The notes beneath the pieces were generated by a model that was not told the origin of the DNA, searched no databases, and was given only the letters and a program-made list of their open reading frames with translations. The position numbers and the translations under genes are program-made. A stretch of DNA of 64,000 bases from Adineta vaga (Eukaryota > Animalia > Rotifera), in the NCBI GenBank assembly GCA_021613535.1, contig CP075492.1:7378001-7442000 (forward strand). Direction: 5' to 3'. Of the stretch, positions 5,639-14,268 are shown one piece after another; the stretch's first letter is position 1, and every line of letters starts with the position of its first letter.

Positions 5639-7111
5639 TTAAGGAACAACAACGTCAGCATTCTGTGGAACAATTGTATCATTTGTTTTCTGTTTCATCG
5701 TAAATAGTTTCGTTGGTTGAGTTCTTTGTATGCGTTCCACATCAATCACTCCATGTGCAACATTATCTAAACCACGAGCTTGATCCACTCGACTGATTCG
5801 AATGCCTATTGTCACATGCAACAATAACAGTATTATTCCAGTGCATATAGCAGAGAATCCAACGGTTACAACTATTCCTATCATTTGATATCCGAGTTGA
5901 ACAACATTTCCATACAATGCACCATTTCGACCTTCACGATTAACATCAGTTTGAGAGAATATGCCAGCTAGAATTGTACCAATCAGACCGCCCAAACCGT
6001 GACAGCTGAATACATCGAGAGTATCATCGATGTGAAAGAAATGCTTTTTTCCAAATAAAAATGAATGAATAATGAAACCACCAATGAGACCAGTAAGAAT
6101 TGCATAGCCTGGTTGAATATAACCAGCAGCAGGCGTAACAACTACAAGACCAACAACGGTCGCTGAACAAATGCCAGGAATAGAGACGAAAAAAGAGTTT
6201 TGCCCTCTGAATTTGCCATGAATGATATCGAGAATAATCCAAATGATCATACTAGATGCTGCAGCTACATTTGTATTGAAAATAGCTAGAGCAGTAATGC
6301 CTATTCACGAGAAGTATAGATAATATGGATGTATTTAGAACAAAAATCTTACCATTGGCAACAAGTGCTGATCCACCATTAAATCCCATCCATCCCACCC
6401 ATAACAATCCAGTACCTATGATTGTGAATGGTAAATTAGTTTGTCCTGCATTGACAACATCAGGATCGAATTGTGCACGAGCTCCAAGAATAGAAGCAGC
6501 AACTAGACCTGATGTTCCACTGGATGTGTGAATCACTAAGCCACCAGCAAAATCTATCACACCCATCTGACAAAGCCAACCTTGTTGAGAAAAGATCCAT
6601 CGTGTCAGTGGATCATAACAACATGTTGTCCAAAGCAAGACGAAGATCATATATGGAACTAGTTTCATTCGACCAACGACGGCACCGCTAATCAATGCAG
6701 GCGTAATGATAGCAAATGAACATTGAAAAGCAACAAATGCCAATGATGGAATCGATTGTGGATTGAAATCATGAAGATTGTCACCAAGAAGAGATATGAG
6801 ACTTGCTTTTCGTTGAATGGCATAGTCGAATGAACCGAATGTGGAAGTGCCCGGTCCAAAAGTGAATGAATAACCGATGAGACACCATTGTACAGGAATG
6901 ATAGCCATACAAACAATGGAGAGGAAGAGTTGGTTGAGAAAGTTTTTATTCTCAACGAGACCACCATAGAAACAAGCGAGAGCAGGTGTCATCATGTAGA
7001 CTAAGGCGGTTGATGTTAATATCTAAATGAGGATGTGTATATAGATAGAAGAATGCACAATGAATGCATTATACCCATGCCGTATCACCATGCTGGTGTT
7101 GTGTCGTTCAT
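5639..7111 (-). CDS. amt: Ammonium transporter, AmtB/MEP (Amt2)-type; 3 exons; apparent frameshift in exon 1
   Basis: Motifs GDTAW|ILTSTALVYMMTPALACFYGG, FQCSFAIITPALISGA, DFAGGLVIH, LLWVGWMGFNGGS, DDTLDVFSCHGLGG. Introns 7023-7074 and ~6302-6353. The ATG at 7111 (MNDTTPA) is out of frame with GDTAW by one base. Confidence 0.93.
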
Positions 7112-7607
7112 TCTCTTTGGAAATGATATTGTGCGATAGTTGTCTTTTGTTTTCTATGTTATGTTTCATATTCTTATAGGAAAGTCTTAACAAAGCATGT
7201 AATCCTTTTGCTCTTTTCCTTTTTTACGTTTAATTATAAAAATATTCTAGAGAATATTGTTTTCAAATGAAAGTAGGATTTTGATAATGAACTTTCTAAT
7301 GATAAAGTCAGCTCGTCTTTTAAAATAGAAAAAAAACAATTTTCAGAATCCATTGTATTTATAGATATAGCTTAAATTAAGACATCAGGATGATCAAAAG
7401 TCTTTTCTTGGAGCTAGAAAAATAGAGTGTGACATATTGTTTAAGAGTTCTCTTTAAAGAACATGATTTATATTGTGTATCGGCTGCTTATTTTAAGTGT
7501 CGCATTAGAATACAACATATTTAGATGATGAGATATAACCAGCTGTCATATAAGCATACGATTAAAAATTTCATATCAAAAGAAAAATTTTTCACATAAG
7601 TAAAACT

Positions 7608-7994
7608 ATGCTTCGATTCGGTATTTTAATTGTTTTTTTCGTGGTTTCATTTACTGTTTCTGTACCAAATTGCAAAATATCCTTTTGGGTAAGTCCAAAG
7701 AATGTGACATGTACAACAGCACCAAATGGAACTTATTCATCAATGGTATATAATGGTATATGTACACCATCACCGGATGATCCACGAAGAACTTCTTATC
7801 AACTTTTAGTTGATTTGAAAACAAAAACAGTACACAATTTTACAATTTTTCGAGATACAACTTGTGCTTCCGTCGATGAACTTATGATTATCAAGGAACC
7901 ACTACAGTTAAATACTTGTGGTTCATTATATTATGCAGCTACTGCAACTAGTTTTGTGAAAATAGGTAGTGTGTTTTTTCATTGTAGAAATTAA
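7608..7994 (+). CDS. Secreted 6-Cys small protein (128 aa), paralog A
   Basis: Single-exon ORF with a hydrophobic signal peptide ending ...TVS-VP. Six mature-region Cys align with 8317-8703. AATAAA follows the stop. Confidence 0.8.
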   Translation: MLRFGILIVFFVVSFTVSVPNCKISFWVSPKNVTCTTAPNGTYSSMVYNGICTPSPDDPRRTSYQLLVDLKTKTVHNFTIFRDTTCASVDELMIIKEPLQLNTCGSLYYAATATSFVKIGSVFFHCRN

Positions 7995-8251
7995 CTCTAA
8001 TCAATAACCATCATTCATTTGATGAAATAAATCATAGTTTACTACGTATTGTCTATTCAGAATTTCAGGTCATTTTTCGTATGCTAATAAACGACCTCAA
8101 TGCTTATTTCAAATCTAAATATCGGTAATATAGCGAAAAAGATGCAATCTATACTTTATTCTATTTAATCATAACGATTTTTTATCTTCTGTTTACTATT
8201 ACTCATGAGAAACTTTCTCAGCTGTTAAATATTTAATAAATCGATATGATG

Positions 8252-8277
<26 letters not shown>
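8252..8277. repeat. (AT)n microsatellite
   Basis: Direct reading: atatatatatatatatatatatatat upstream of paralog B. Confidence 0.9.
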
Positions 8278-8282
<5 letters not shown>

Positions 8283-8316
8283 CAATATTTTTATCTAGTT
8301 AATTGCAACTGAAAAA

Positions 8317-8703
8317 ATGTTTTTAATTGGATCCATTCTTCTTGTTTGCTTAACTGCAGTGACATTCTCTGTACCAACATGTAATGTATCACTCTGGTCT
8401 AATTTCAAAGATATGACATGTTCGGGAACACCTAATAGCACTGACATAGCTATGGTTTATAATGGTAACTGCACGATGTTTCCCAATGATCCAAGTTGGA
8501 CAACATACAAATTTCTTTATGATGCTGATACAAAAACCGTTCAAAATTTCCGAGTATATAATTTCAAGAATTGTTTTACAGGAAATGATTTATATTTTGC
8601 CAAAACACCTGCTCCAATAAATGTTTGTGTTCCAGCGTTTTTGGTAATTGGTCCTACTAGTAATGTTCCAATGGGTGGAGTACAATTTGATTGTACGGAT
8701 TAA
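8317..8703 (+). CDS. Secreted 6-Cys small protein (128 aa), paralog B
   Basis: Same length as paralog A. Shared SVPxC, TCxxxPN, MVYNGxCT, PxDP, TKTVxNF and terminal FxC. AATAAA follows the stop. Confidence 0.8.
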   Translation: MFLIGSILLVCLTAVTFSVPTCNVSLWSNFKDMTCSGTPNSTDIAMVYNGNCTMFPNDPSWTTYKFLYDADTKTVQNFRVYNFKNCFTGNDLYFAKTPAPINVCVPAFLVIGPTSNVPMGGVQFDCTD

Positions 8704-8856
8704 CGAACTATGTTTCTTTCTTTCTTTCTTTTTAAAATAAAACTGAGAAAGATAAAAGCAATCATTTTACTTCATAATTTGAACATTACATGATACATAT
8801 GTCAGAGTTCAGTGCAGTATTTTTACATATGAAGGTTTATTTATAAAATCTGTTAT

Positions 8857-9991
8857 TCATATTAACATATTTACAAGTTTTCGTGGTGTAATAGCTGTCG
8901 AGGATGGCGTACAAGTTTCATATAGACACAAATGATCACAATCCTAATTGAAACAAATTAATAATCAAAGAAATAGAAAAACATTGAATGATTCTATTTA
9001 CCTGCCAAAAAAGATTTTTACACAATTGACATTGATAGATCATTTCAGCATAAACTTCTCGAAGACCGTATTGTCTTTTTAATTTAAAATAAACTTTTTT
9101 CCAATCGATATTTTCTAAATCGAAATCTTTTGATTGTCGTTTCATGAAATCAAGAATTTTTTCTCCTAATCGATCAGAATTCTGGGTTTCTTCACCAAAA
9201 TGATACAAACATAATTGTTTCCATATGAATAATTCTTGTGTTAATCGATAAAAATTCGAATTAATCATTCCAATATTAATCAAATCTGTTCCATTATCTA
9301 ATTTCCTTATAACCTCTCGGTGCATTTCAATTGGAAGACAATTGAAAGTTAATTTATTTTGTTCATCAGTTTTTATGCGGATTTGTTTAATAGTTTCTTT
9401 CATACGTGTTAACATTTCAATATGTTGTTGCCATAAAGCCGCCGAACCAATATAATAATAAAACGGATATGCAGATTGTATAGAATTATGAAATTGTGTA
9501 ACTAATCGTTGCATCAATGAGATATTATCCCCAGTGGTAAGAACTGAAATGTCAAGAGAATATACGTATATCAATCAAAGATAGATTCATTACATACCCA
9601 TCTTAATCATTCGATCAATAATTTGAAATAACGAACGTTGTGCATTTCCGCTTAGTTCGCCGAGTTTTTCTTCGAATAGAATTTGTACAACCTAGGAATA
9701 TAGACAAATATCATACTGAGCACAAGATAGTAAATATCTTACTTTTGCGATATAATTAAATCGTCGAGTATTATTAACTGAATTAACAATATCGAGTGCA
9801 TTGAATATATCGGACAGACTGCAATTATAATTTGATGACTAAATATTCAAAATTCGATTCAAATAGAAGATCATGAACGAATACCTTACCGGATTCGTAA
9901 ATGAAGTTTGTCGTGATCGTTCCCAAGAACCTACTTCACTTTTCGTCCATTGTTCACCACTAGCTCGCCAATCTCGTCCGATAAATGGCAT
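8857..9991 (-). CDS. FBXO32: F-box only protein 32/25 (atrogin-1 family)
   Basis: N-terminus MPFIGRDWRASGEQWTK (atrogin MPFLGQDWRSPG), INNTRRFNYIAK, LSGNAQRSLFQI, F-box LTFNCLPIEM...IWKQLCLYHF, and C-terminal CQLCKNLFW...HLC...ITPRKLVNML. Multiple GT-AG introns. Confidence 0.9.
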
Positions 9992-10637: not shown

Positions 10638-13286
10638 CTAGAGGCCGCATCTGCGTCCATTTGGAAGGACCATTTCCCCTTCGCAATTTCGAAGTGTACC
10701 CAAAATTCGATCAACTTCATGGCCTTGAAAATCGTAGAATGTTGCTTCATATGTTACAGAATTCGGTCGAGCTGTATTCACTATCATCATCGTAGCTGAG
10801 TGCAACTTCCCAACGAACACTTCCTCTATTGTTTTCTAGATGTTCTCGAATCCTAAGTTCAGTTTGATACCAATCAACAAGTAGATGTGATTGACGATAG
10901 TTTCGATTTAAACTACGATGTTGTGGAAACATATTGTAAAGTTCCGGTGGTCCACTAAACATACTGGCAACAATATGGTCACGTTCATCTTCTACTAATC
11001 CGTTCATGTTTTGTCGCATATAATCTGTACTAGTATTACCTGAATCGGGAAAATTAACTCGATGATTGCGTCGATAATGTAATGGAGTTATTGTTGCTAC
11101 AACAAATTCAACACGTTCTGTTTGAACCCGTCCAGTAAACCTACCGTGAGTTACGGTACGAACAATGGTTTGTTGAATTGGGTTGTTTGGATCATTTGGA
11201 TTAATTACTCGCGTTCCGCTTGGACTTCGAATTAAACGTTGATAAATTTCACGTAATATATCAGATACAATAGGTATATATGCGGTAGCTATATATAAAA
11301 GAGCCGTTGACGAAACACCACATGTTTTAGAAGATGAAGGTCCTGCTCGTTTGTTACGTACATTCCCTTTTTTCTCAGTGGTTGAAACAGATAATGTTTG
11401 AAAATCGTTTCGACTATCAGCATTGCCATTGATTTGAAATGTAAATGTTTTATCATCGATCTGATGATAGATAGCATTTATTGTTGCAAAATTTATGTAC
11501 CAGGTTTTGATAAAGTATGGTGGCTATTATCATGTTCACGATTTAGTCCTTGATCGATACTCCAGATCATAACACCTAAAAGATACATTTAAAATCAGCA
11601 ATTGTACAGAATGATTCACTTATGTAAGTCCTGTTCGATTGTCTTCTTAATTATTGAATGATAATTTGAAGCTAGCAATATCGATTCAACAAGATCGTTC
11701 TCAACTAACATAGGATAGCGAGTAGATTAATAAATAATGAAGATTTACCTCTTAAACAATGCTCTTTTGCATATTGACGTCTCATGGATAGTGTTTCTTC
11801 ATCATCATATGCCACCCATTGATTGTTTCCCCATGTCAATATTTTTGACATTGATGATGAATCTAGTTTTACCGTTTTCTGATGATTTTTAGCAATAATT
11901 TCTTCGATTTCAAACCATGCTAATGTTCCAGAAGAATTTGTACATGAGCCTGGGTCGCCTGGTCCCGAAAATTTGCACCCGAGATTTTTACATGATGGAC
12001 TTTCCAATGTGAAAGATCGACCATAATAACCAAGACCAAAAACAAGTTGATCGCTTTTAACACCATCTAGAACAAATAATCATTTTATTTAGAGATCAAG
12101 AACGAAGAAAATAATATTTTTAATTCTAATTAACGTTACATACCGCGTAAAAATAATTCAAATGCTTGTTCTATTTCTTCCATATTTGTATGTGATTTAA
12201 CATATGGTCCTAAAGATTTAATATCTCGATCCCAAACACCATGTATATCATAAGTCATAACATTGATAAAATCCAAATACTTTGACATTTCACCAATTTT
12301 AAAATGTCTTAGATACCAATAACTTGCTGGTGCTGCAATTGTTATCAAATACTTTTTACCTAATGCATTTCTCAATTCTTTGATTAATGTGACATAATTA
12401 TCGGTGTCTATTGGCGAACCACCGCGATCTTCCGCAGCTGGATACTCATAATCAATATCGATACCATCGAAATGATGTTTCTCCAAATATTTTCGAACTG
12501 ATCTAATAAACCGATTTCTTGCATCTGAAAAAAACCTGTTTGAAAAAGATTGATTACCAATGTATATCATAAATTTACTTTGTGTAGAAATGATATTATG
12601 AAATTCTTGTCGTGTTGGACCAGGATCGTTAAATGTCCAACCGCCAACTGATACTAATACTTTCAAAGAAGGATTGATTTGTTTTAGACCAGTAAACTGT
12701 TTGATTTCCGATAATTCATTGGATGTATTCGGATCAATCATAACTCCATTTGATATATTTCCAAACGCATAATTTAAATGTGTATAACTACGTGGATCAA
12801 TATTTTTCATACTATACGGGTGACATTTTCTATATGCTGCCCATGATGCATAATAACCTATTTCTAAAGTAAATAAAAAATAGAAGAGACTCGATTATTT
12901 TAGGTGAAATTTATTTGAATCACCTAATAATTTTCCATTATTTCCATTAGAACATTTCGGTAATTTCTTATTACCACAGTTGTTTTGACATTTTTTTGCT
13001 GTCGAACAAAAATCTTCAGTTGTACCACAAAAACCAAATTCACTACAACATACATTTAGTGGACATTTTTCTACTTTGCCATATTTTCCACATTCCGATT
13101 TTGCTTGACAATTTGACAAACAATTCCCACCACAAAAATCAGGTCCATACCCACAATTACCCCATTTACTGCAGCATGCACCATTGATAATGGAGATGTT
13201 TCCGAACATGTATTTGAACATACCATTTGAACATGATATAGCAAGATTAATAGATTTAATATTCGGTTTTGTTTTAATAGTGCCAT
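10638..13286 (-). CDS. Secreted CBM18x2-GH18 chitinase fused via a furin site to a C-terminal His-Me-finger nuclease (killer-toxin-like); 4 introns, 3 apparent frameshifts
   Basis: Signal peptide MALLKQNRILNLLILLYHVQMVCS. Hevein motifs CCSKWGNCG and CPLNVCCSEFGFCG. GH18 motifs IGYYASW, SVGGW, FDGIDIDYEYP, NVMTYDIHG, GVMIWSIDQ. Introns 12864-12923, 12525-12578, 12067-12143, 11576-11748. RNKR at 11347-11358. Nuclease motif DERDHIVASMFSGP...NMFPQHRSLN...WYQTE...RP. Frameshifts near 13187, 11525 and 10782. Confidence 0.8.
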
Positions 13287-13717
13287 GTAAATATTAATTG
13301 CCTTGTACGAACAATAACACAAATATGAAGAGAAATATTACACTTTATTGAATTAGTTTCTACGTTTTCAATGCTTTTGCTGTGTAATTGTGTAATATAG
13401 TTAGATGAGACTGTTTTACTTGCTATGGTTAAATCTAAGTATTGAATACAATAATTTTTAAATGAAATAGACTATATTTATATATATATATGCAATTGCA
13501 GGAAAAAAAACATAAATTAATATCCTTCGTTGCTTTATTATAGGAAATATATCTGTCAACGTATGACATTAGAAAATCCATACTTTTTCTTTAAATTATA
13601 GAAATCGACTTGTCAGCAATCGTTATATAGTGGGAAAAATGGGCAAACTATATTTATCTTTTGTAAATATGATAGCCAGTTTGCTATTTTACTGCAGACA
13701 CTATTTAATAATCAAAG

Positions 13718-14268
13718 ATGCAGTATGGTAAGTTGAATTTTAGCGCATAACAGTTGAATGTAGAAACAAGTATATCAGTTCTTAGGTTATGCGCTTTCAC
13801 AGATGAGATTATCGTTAGATATTAAATTTAACACTCTGTTCATGTAATGTATTTCATCTTCTTTTTTTATCTTCGATTCTAGCACTATTACAAACTATCA
13901 TCATTGTTCTCCTATTGATAAATATCACTAATGGTGTTTGTGTGAATAATGACAGTTGTCGCTCAGTTCATGTTGAATTATATAACCGTGGAAACTGTAA
14001 GTCATGCTTTTCGAAAAAAGTTGGAAAAAATTCTAAACAGTGCTGTGATGCTGGAAATAAAGATTGCTGGAGAGATTCAAAAGAAGACTCACTATTTTGG
14101 GTTGATTGTGATACGGATAAGAGAAAAAAGAAGGGTATTGGACAAACAATTGTTGCTTGTACTAATTGTGAAATTAACTTCTATGATAGTGGCTTAATTG
14201 TTGTCGCTGAAGATAGCGGATCAAAACGGACACTTACTACGCTTGTAAAAACATGTCATAATATTTAA
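13718..14268 (+). CDS. Small secreted Cys-rich protein, divergently transcribed from the chitinase-nuclease gene
   Basis: Exon 1 ATGCAGTATG|gtaagt (13718-13727) spliced to the acceptor before 13883 gives signal peptide MQYALLQTIIIVLLLINITNG, then VCVNNDSC...CFSKKV...QCCDAGNKDC with 11 Cys. AATAAA follows the stop. Confidence 0.8.

Follow-up and report, generated by a model that had tools for sequence, protein, structure and literature searches.

A small cysteine-rich gene with a predicted secreted product and a chitinase-nuclease fusion gene form a head-to-head pair in the rotifer Adineta vaga

A divergent gene pair in Adineta vaga

A small gene (I4U23_013053), annotated as encoding a protein of 131 amino acids, and a chitinase-nuclease fusion gene are arranged head-to-head in the 64-kb stretch of the Adineta vaga genome analysed here, referred to below as the window. 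The two start codons are located on opposite strands at a distance of 432 nucleotides (nt), ATG to ATG (13286 on the minus strand versus the small gene), which agrees with the ~430 bp given in the first-pass annotation of this DNA, where the small gene was described as the secreted partner of a toxin gene. The features of the pair are:

13718..13727, plus strand: first coding exon of the small gene, 10 nt (sequence; splice joint in runs X14, X15 and X16; match to UJR08797.1)
13728..13882, plus strand: intron of the small gene, 155 nt, GT..AG (sequence; skipped in contigs)
13883..14268, plus strand: exon 2 of the small gene, coding for the remainder of the predicted signal peptide to 13935 and, from 13936, for the mature protein, modelled as a nine-strand beta-sandwich
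14237..14238, no strand: site of a 4-base indel between the assembly and all bridging runs (6/8 compared runs)
13287..13717, no strand: divergent intergenic region, 431 nt, 25.5% GC, with both 5' untranslated regions and a presumed shared promoter, ~260 nt
10638..13286, minus strand: fusion gene (NCBI I4U23_013052, mis-modelled), identified by Pfam, with four introns that are spliced in contigs
11347..11358, minus strand: dibasic furin/Kex2-type site, RNKR (RRKR or RRRR in homologs), seen in the sequence, with cleavage predicted
10771..11034, minus strand: His-Me-finger nuclease core, PF13930 (Pfam; closest solved sequence EssD/EsaD)
10647..10649, minus strand: near-terminal Cys of the fusion protein, the third residue from the end in 4/4 homologs (sequence)

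Structure and expression of the small gene

Eight of the 24 listed sequencing runs were compared with the assembly, as assembled contigs throughout. The contigs of X14, X15 and X16 were called RNA-type, with no RNA source on record; contig depth cannot rank expression, and contig ends cannot show the transcription start. The intron of the small gene is skipped in the X14, X15 and X16 contigs and is present in the DNA runs X1 and X2, while a contig of X17 carries a loose end matching exon 1 and one 151-nt contig of X20 spans the acceptor unspliced. The protein encoded by the spliced exons has the same sequence as NCBI UJR08797.1, and together with the splice joint in the three runs this identity confirms the 10-nt first coding exon that the first-pass annotation had proposed. 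The signal peptide claimed in the same annotation is likewise supported by hydropathy, from which it is predicted: Kyte-Doolittle 11-mer values at the N-terminus reach 3.1, which marks a strongly hydrophobic stretch. The ratio of nonsynonymous to synonymous substitution (dN/dS) is ~0.14-0.22 against and between the rotifer-type copies of the metagenomic locus L001 described below, with dS near saturation. No second copy of the small gene was found by tblastn across the window. The small gene is a real, spliced and expressed gene.

Its annotated end is in error. Six of the eight compared runs, comprising all those that bridge the site, carry a 4-base indel relative to the assembly at 14237, and because of this disagreement the annotated last ten residues of the protein are considered wrong and the annotated stop codon (14266-14268) is an assembly artefact. 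Past the indel, the other reading frame reads YACKNMS-stop, which resembles the homologs. The true stop codon is likely that at 14259-14261 in this frame, and the corrected protein end likely carries the last cysteine motif of the family. The CVNN..F..CC..C pattern pointed out in the first-pass annotation is present in the small protein and conserved across the family.

In the intergenic region, the RNA-type contigs extend to 13436 on the fusion side and to ~13694 on the side of the small gene, leaving a gap of ~260 nt. The runs with spliced contigs, X14, X15 and X16, are the same for the two genes. No promoter 10-mers were common to the loci of different species above chance.

The chitinase-nuclease fusion gene

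The fusion protein comprises, in order, a predicted signal peptide, two Chitin_bind_1 (hevein) domains, a GH18 domain with the DxDxE motif, a Cys-free linker, the dibasic site and an Endonuclea_NS_2 domain. Its introns lie near 12863-12924, 12524-12579, 12066-12144 and 11573-11747; contigs of X14, X15 and X16 show each of them spliced out, and in X14 one contig is continuous from the chitin-binding part into the nuclease. Three frame breaks interrupt the gene in the assembly, near 13189, 11498 and 10775-10785, and all compared runs covering them (5, 5 and 6 runs, respectively) show an indel there. As the covering runs differ from the assembly by an indel at every frame break, the gene is intact in the animal, and it is expressed; pseudogene status was rejected on the basis of these indels and the splicing. 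At 10979, within the codon preceding that of the catalytic His of the nuclease, the five covering runs also disagree with the assembly, and the NCBI model I4U23_013052 lacks both the signal peptide and the greater part of the linker. Between 10500 and 14500, the window differs from the short-read contigs by several indels and substitutions, four of the indels falling in coding sequence, while the DNA runs show two haplotypes near 10775-10785, each of another length than the assembly.

The piece of the fusion protein that follows the dibasic site contains exactly three Cys in 4/4 fusions, and the linker none. The nuclease matches EssD/EsaD (PDB 8guo) over the Endonuclease_NS_2 His-Me core (81 profile positions; E-value: 3.8e-6). 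A fold model of the linker and nuclease is of low confidence (predicted local distance difference test, pLDDT: 43), its top matches being EndA, NucA and EndoG at E-values of 0.008-0.08.

The gene pair in other genomes

Two loci, L001 and L002, were recovered from 100 pattern matches in one metagenome scan. The same fusion gene is head-to-head with a small gene in both (2/2), with ATG-to-ATG distances of 208 and 853 nt versus 432 in the window. The first-pass annotation had proposed synteny as a check and named homologs unlinked to chitinases as the outcome that would speak against the pairing; both homologous loci are instead linked, and to the same fusion.

Locus L001 is AT-rich and rotifer-like (bdelloid-like), and the gene downstream of its fusion encodes an NHL-repeat protein versus an F-box-like protein in the window. 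It contains two small-gene copies, at 7971-8402 (plus strand) and 8479-8964 (minus strand), which are tail to tail and 71% identical. These share 24 upstream 10-mers (null mean 0.9), pointing to an inverted duplication that includes the promoter, and the contig stops short of where a second fusion gene might be. Locus L002 has a GC content of 51% and is a Tyrophagus-like mite locus, the fusion protein of which shares 91-93% identity with Tyrophagus putrescentiae TYRP_015957 in the N-terminal and GH18 segments and 75% in the C-terminal part. TYRP_015957 is one of only two long homologs among 7,994 scored candidates. A 101-codon ATG open reading frame (ORF) in the AT-rich intergenic region of L002 (3188-4039) is probably due to chance.

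Between rotifer and mite, the small protein shares 46-51% identity and the nuclease piece 41-47%. Comparison of two mite-like fusion copies, that of L002 (779-1726) and P0041, gives 71% for the nuclease piece, 88% for the linker and 91-93% for the GH18 segments; the faster divergence of the nuclease piece would be as expected of a toxin tip. The GH18 motif of P0041 reads DIDYH and lacks the catalytic Glu, possibly through a gene-model error.

Codon usage tracks that of each host (GC content at third codon positions of 0.18-0.25 versus 0.77-0.88) and speaks against contamination. In the window, L001 and L002 alike, a phase-1 intron precedes the last GH18 strand; this intron fits an intron-bearing eukaryotic ancestor, although it is situated at a proto-splice site. 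Given the patchy occurrence of the pair, horizontal transfer of both genes together from a eukaryote is likely. No donor lineage was found in the family and genome searches, and vertical descent with loss stands as an alternative.

The small-protein family

Successive rounds of family searches returned 3, 11 and 14 matches. The counts below refer to 34-35 near-complete sequences, with cluster members included and the fragments P0007, P0009, P0012, P0013 and P0015 excluded. The named members belong to Adineta vaga, Rotaria sp. Silwood2 and Didymodactylos carnosus, and the proteins range from 118 to 172 amino acids in length. A rotifer-containing group, a three-member group with L002 and a distant 13-member group can be distinguished in the family tree, which is midpoint-rooted and in which long branches meet.

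A near-terminal Cys is present in 33/34 rows of the family alignment, the sole row without it being the window copy, which was cut ahead of the assembly error. The mature proteins have an odd number of Cys in 28 of the 34 rows, position 8 is Cys in 32/34, and a Glu is conserved at position 14. Furthermore, eleven of 35 sequences end in a KDEL-like tail (five [KH]DELK, three KDELI and three DEEL or DTEL), while the other 24 do not. Shuffled tails match the KDEL-like pattern at <=0.00015 (six tested; the pattern was chosen after the tails had been seen).

AlphaFold2 predicted the intact L001 copy as a compact all-beta domain of nine strands (pLDDT: 84.8), with no helix of four or more residues. 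No credible family was identified in Pfam, NCBIfam and PDB sequence searches, 0/34 rows match the LysM profile at an E-value of 0.1, and no carbohydrate-binding module (CBM) family was matched. The comparison with killer-toxin and crystallin-like folds suggested in the first-pass annotation was run with Foldseek and returned nothing at E <= 0.001 in PDB or BFVD; KP4 and crystallin folds are absent among the Foldseek and VIA-align matches listed, which does not exclude them. The best VIA-align match of the model is SPH15, a self-incompatibility protein homologue (SPH; PDB 6g7g; Z: 6.8; root-mean-square deviation: 3.4; 95 aligned residues), surrounded by generic transthyretin-like sandwiches, and a weak likeness to thaumatin-like and carbohydrate-binding beta-sandwiches is seen at Z 4.0-4.4. 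SPH proteins share the small size and the predicted secretion and disulfide stabilisation of the small protein. In contrast, identity is 8%, the Z score falls in the range of common arrangements (the extracellular domains of PepT1/2 give Z 6.2 and 6.1), and Pfam gives no support. Atlas placed two divergent family members in the same nematode cluster (0.92), with recognition below threshold both times, and this is taken as a lead only. As judged from the model, the small proteins constitute a new nine-strand beta-sandwich family.

Among prokaryotic genomes, five of 57 pattern matches passed tblastn, all of them 18-residue matches in Pirellulaceae (two translated), and these were rejected as chance. 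The small family was found in 0/11 and 0/24 stretches of viral contigs. An origin of the family as a copy of a domain of the fusion protein, or of the secreted gene at 8299 in the window, was rejected by comparison. The latter gene (8299-8703, plus strand) and that at 7566-7994 (plus strand) encode tandem, alike-looking small secreted Cys proteins of ~130 amino acids each, the former with a weak CfaA_B_C (counting factor-associated) match (2.7e-5) below the cut-off. An ammonium transporter gene (5639-7022, minus strand) and the F-box-like gene (8936-9574, minus strand) are also located downstream of the fusion gene.

Comparison with known systems

Zymocin-like toxins are built from a chitinase precursor, which is processed into alpha and beta subunits, and a separately encoded gamma subunit, the near-terminal Cys of which bonds to the terminal Cys of beta (10.1101/2024.10.25.620242; PMC13556262). 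The hallmarks given for these systems are a secreted gene beside the chitinase gene, a terminal Cys on the precursor and a near-terminal Cys on the partner, and the immunity proteins are described as non-secreted (10.1101/2024.10.25.620242). The pair described here is similar: its GH18 precursor has chitin-binding domains, a processing site and a terminal Cys, and the small gene beside it encodes a protein with a near-terminal Cys and predicted secretion. The gamma position, a secreted gene beside a chitinase gene, is occupied at 3/3 loci, where secretion is taken from hydropathy. Zymocin-like clusters also move between genomes as a cluster, to which the rotifer/mite pair may be likened. Unlike in zymocin, it is the C-terminal, beta-position piece of the precursor and not the small gene that holds the recognisable nuclease (His-Me finger, PF13930), the partner chitinase lacks LysM (only Chitin_bind_1, GH18 and Endonuclea_NS_2 are found in the homologs P0040 and P0041), and the hosts are animals. 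Nor was an immunity gene found among the flanking ORFs in a general family scan, which did not include an immunity profile. The small protein further differs from gamma in its length (131 versus 225-366 amino acids; PMC13348850), its modelled all-beta fold and the absence of Glu-8, and its identification as a zymocin gamma toxin was rejected on length and Glu-8.

Secreted genes for proteins of 130-167 amino acids beside killer chitinases have been reported in early-diverging fungi (Mucoromycota and Zoopagomycota), and three of these proteins were non-toxic in yeast; 'a different cargo' has been suggested (Heneghan 2026; PMC13348850). The small protein resembles these virus-like-element proteins in size, predicted secretion, location beside a killer-type chitinase and, for most of them, the lack of Glu-8. 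By contrast, the fungal genes are found on cytosolic plasmids beside C-II chitinases, and the available text mentions no fused nuclease (PMC13348850). The motif of the small family has no match in the supplement text of the same report, the family searches returned no hit bearing the name of one of these fungal proteins, and the likeness is by description alone.

A further parallel is provided by K28, in which the non-toxic beta subunit is disulfide-linked and its HDEL, masked by one basic residue, serves retrograde uptake (PMC5666379); 5/35 members of the small family similarly end in [KH]DELK. The alpha and beta subunits of K28 are, however, derived from one precursor and involve no chitinase (PMC5666379), and the window copy has no tail. 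No sequence or fold match was found between K28 beta and the small family.

The first-pass annotation had drawn on the LysM partners of fungal subgroup C chitinases. The tal6 and tac6 genes, for a LysM partner and a subgroup C chitinase, are adjacent and co-regulated, and an adjacent secreted Cys-rich gene is what the two systems have in common (PMC4392113). The small protein contains no LysM motif and is modelled as a beta-sandwich rather than a beta-alpha-alpha-beta fold, and as such the analogy holds for position only. The zymocin gamma position is a closer precedent for the small gene than the LysM partners. In the Staphylococcus type VII system, EssD/EsaD depends on bacterial export, whereas the nuclease here is fused to a chitinase with a predicted signal peptide. 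A survey of horizontal gene transfer in mites lists two actinobacterial-like chitinases, and 'nuclease' and 'Adineta' do not occur in its main text (PMC9113151). In a literature search with limited coverage of subscription journals, no title or abstract opening was found that describes the pairing of the small gene with the fusion, and no paper was retrieved by accession.

Proposed role of the small protein

The terminal-Cys pattern, the odd Cys counts, the KDEL-like tails and the K28 precedent lead us to read the small protein as a non-catalytic, disulfide-linked delivery or helper subunit of a chitinase-nuclease toxin, a reading to which we give an even chance. Both proteins would enter the endoplasmic reticulum (ER), as their hydrophobic N-termini suggest, and a furin/Kex2-type protease would cut the fusion at the conserved dibasic site. 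The released nuclease piece, with its three Cys, could then form a disulfide with the Cys left unpaired in the small beta-sandwich, to judge by the odd Cys counts. By analogy to zymocin, the hevein and GH18 domains would dock on and loosen chitin, while the small subunit may stabilise the nuclease and aid its uptake, in some lineages via the KDEL-like tail observed in homologs. The nuclease piece would in this way be carried into chitin-walled target cells, fungi being the most likely target.

Several observations weigh against the helper reading. The linkage to the fusion gene concerns three loci out of ~35 family sequences. None of the small proteins of the window, L001 and L002 ends in a KDEL-like tail (that of L002 ends in DRGL), and the tail-bearing homologs come without visible gene neighbours. 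The eleven tails furthermore fall in approximately three related groups of the tree, the pattern having been defined afterwards, and the three unmasked ones (DEEL and DTEL) fit ER retention equally well. In L001, the copy opposite the fusion gene is without Cys8; its number of Cys is even, which is also the case in four other complete rows. The well-conserved polar residues N5, E14, R/K18, W61 and Q76 could form an active site.

Such residues would suit a second toxic cargo, delivered by the chitinase from the zymocin gamma position as part of a pair with two warheads, which we consider rather unlikely. KDEL-like tails are also found on catalytic toxin chains. The gamma-like position of the gene and its terminal Cys agree with such a role, as does the 'different cargo' suggested for the 130-167 amino acid neighbours of Mucoromycota and Zoopagomycota chitinases (Heneghan 2026; PMC13348850). 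However, the small protein lacks Glu-8 and is half the size of gamma toxins, its disulfide-rich beta-sandwich has no enzyme fold match, the fusion already has a nuclease, and the three fungal proteins that resemble it by size, rather than by demonstrated homology, were not toxic to yeast (PMC13348850). Little probability is likewise assigned to self-protection or folding, in which an ER-resident or secreted inhibitor or chaperone would keep the producer free of active nuclease or chitinase. Both hosts, rotifer and mite, make chitin, EssD/EsaD has a cognate inhibitor and chaperone, the tight pairing resembles that of toxin-immunity genes, and the unmasked DEEL/DTEL tails in 3/35 sequences would keep the protein in the ER. 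Against this, the 24 untailed and five Lys-masked sequences of the 35 favour export, and between the mite-like copies the small protein is 88% identical versus 71% for the nuclease piece, unlike a tightly co-diverging antidote (the pairing of P0011 with P0041 as cognates is assumed), while the immunity proteins of zymocin are not secreted (10.1101/2024.10.25.620242). Of the second component proposed in the first-pass annotation, the part that stands is a dedicated component travelling with the fusion gene, because both homologous loci are head-to-head with the same fusion (2/2), whereas protection of the rotifer's own jaws is not favoured, because the pair is also present in a mite-like genome.

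We regard it as improbable that the small protein is a secreted effector which is co-regulated with the fusion protein yet acts physically apart from it, such as a glycan binder in the role of the LysM partners. The adjacent, co-regulated tal6 and tac6 genes offer a precedent (PMC4392113), and the weak fold likeness to thaumatin-like and carbohydrate-binding sandwiches (Z 4.0-4.4) would be compatible with it; but no LysM or CBM family is matched, and the odd Cys counts of both partners and the KDEL-like tails would be left unexplained. Almost no credence attaches to adjacency by chance, an artefactual small gene or a pseudogene neighbour, for although three frame breaks are present in the assembled neighbour, the splicing, the purifying selection, the indels that the runs show at each of these breaks and the occurrence of the same pair in 2/2 other loci contradict this.

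A wider form of the helper-subunit reading, which is tentative and more doubtful, is that bdelloid rotifers and mould mites possess a mobile zymocin of two genes in which the roles are swapped, with the His-Me warhead in the beta position. The gene in the gamma position would represent a new family of disulfide-linked B-subunits, with K28-style masked KDEL entry in some lineages, and the same family may constitute the 130-167 amino acid cargo of early-diverging fungal killer plasmids.

Implications

In the available text of the zymocin literature cited here, chitinase-delivered nuclease toxins are described in fungi only. The system is easily missed, because indels in the assembly have corrupted the A. 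vaga gene models of both partners. If the proposed role is correct, the conserved two-gene version in rotifer and mite would be an animal-encoded antifungal weapon of the A/B type, probably borrowed as a unit. It would provide a lead for pathogen defence in bdelloids and for fungivorous mites, and it might explain what role is played by the short secreted proteins encoded beside non-Dikarya killer chitinases.

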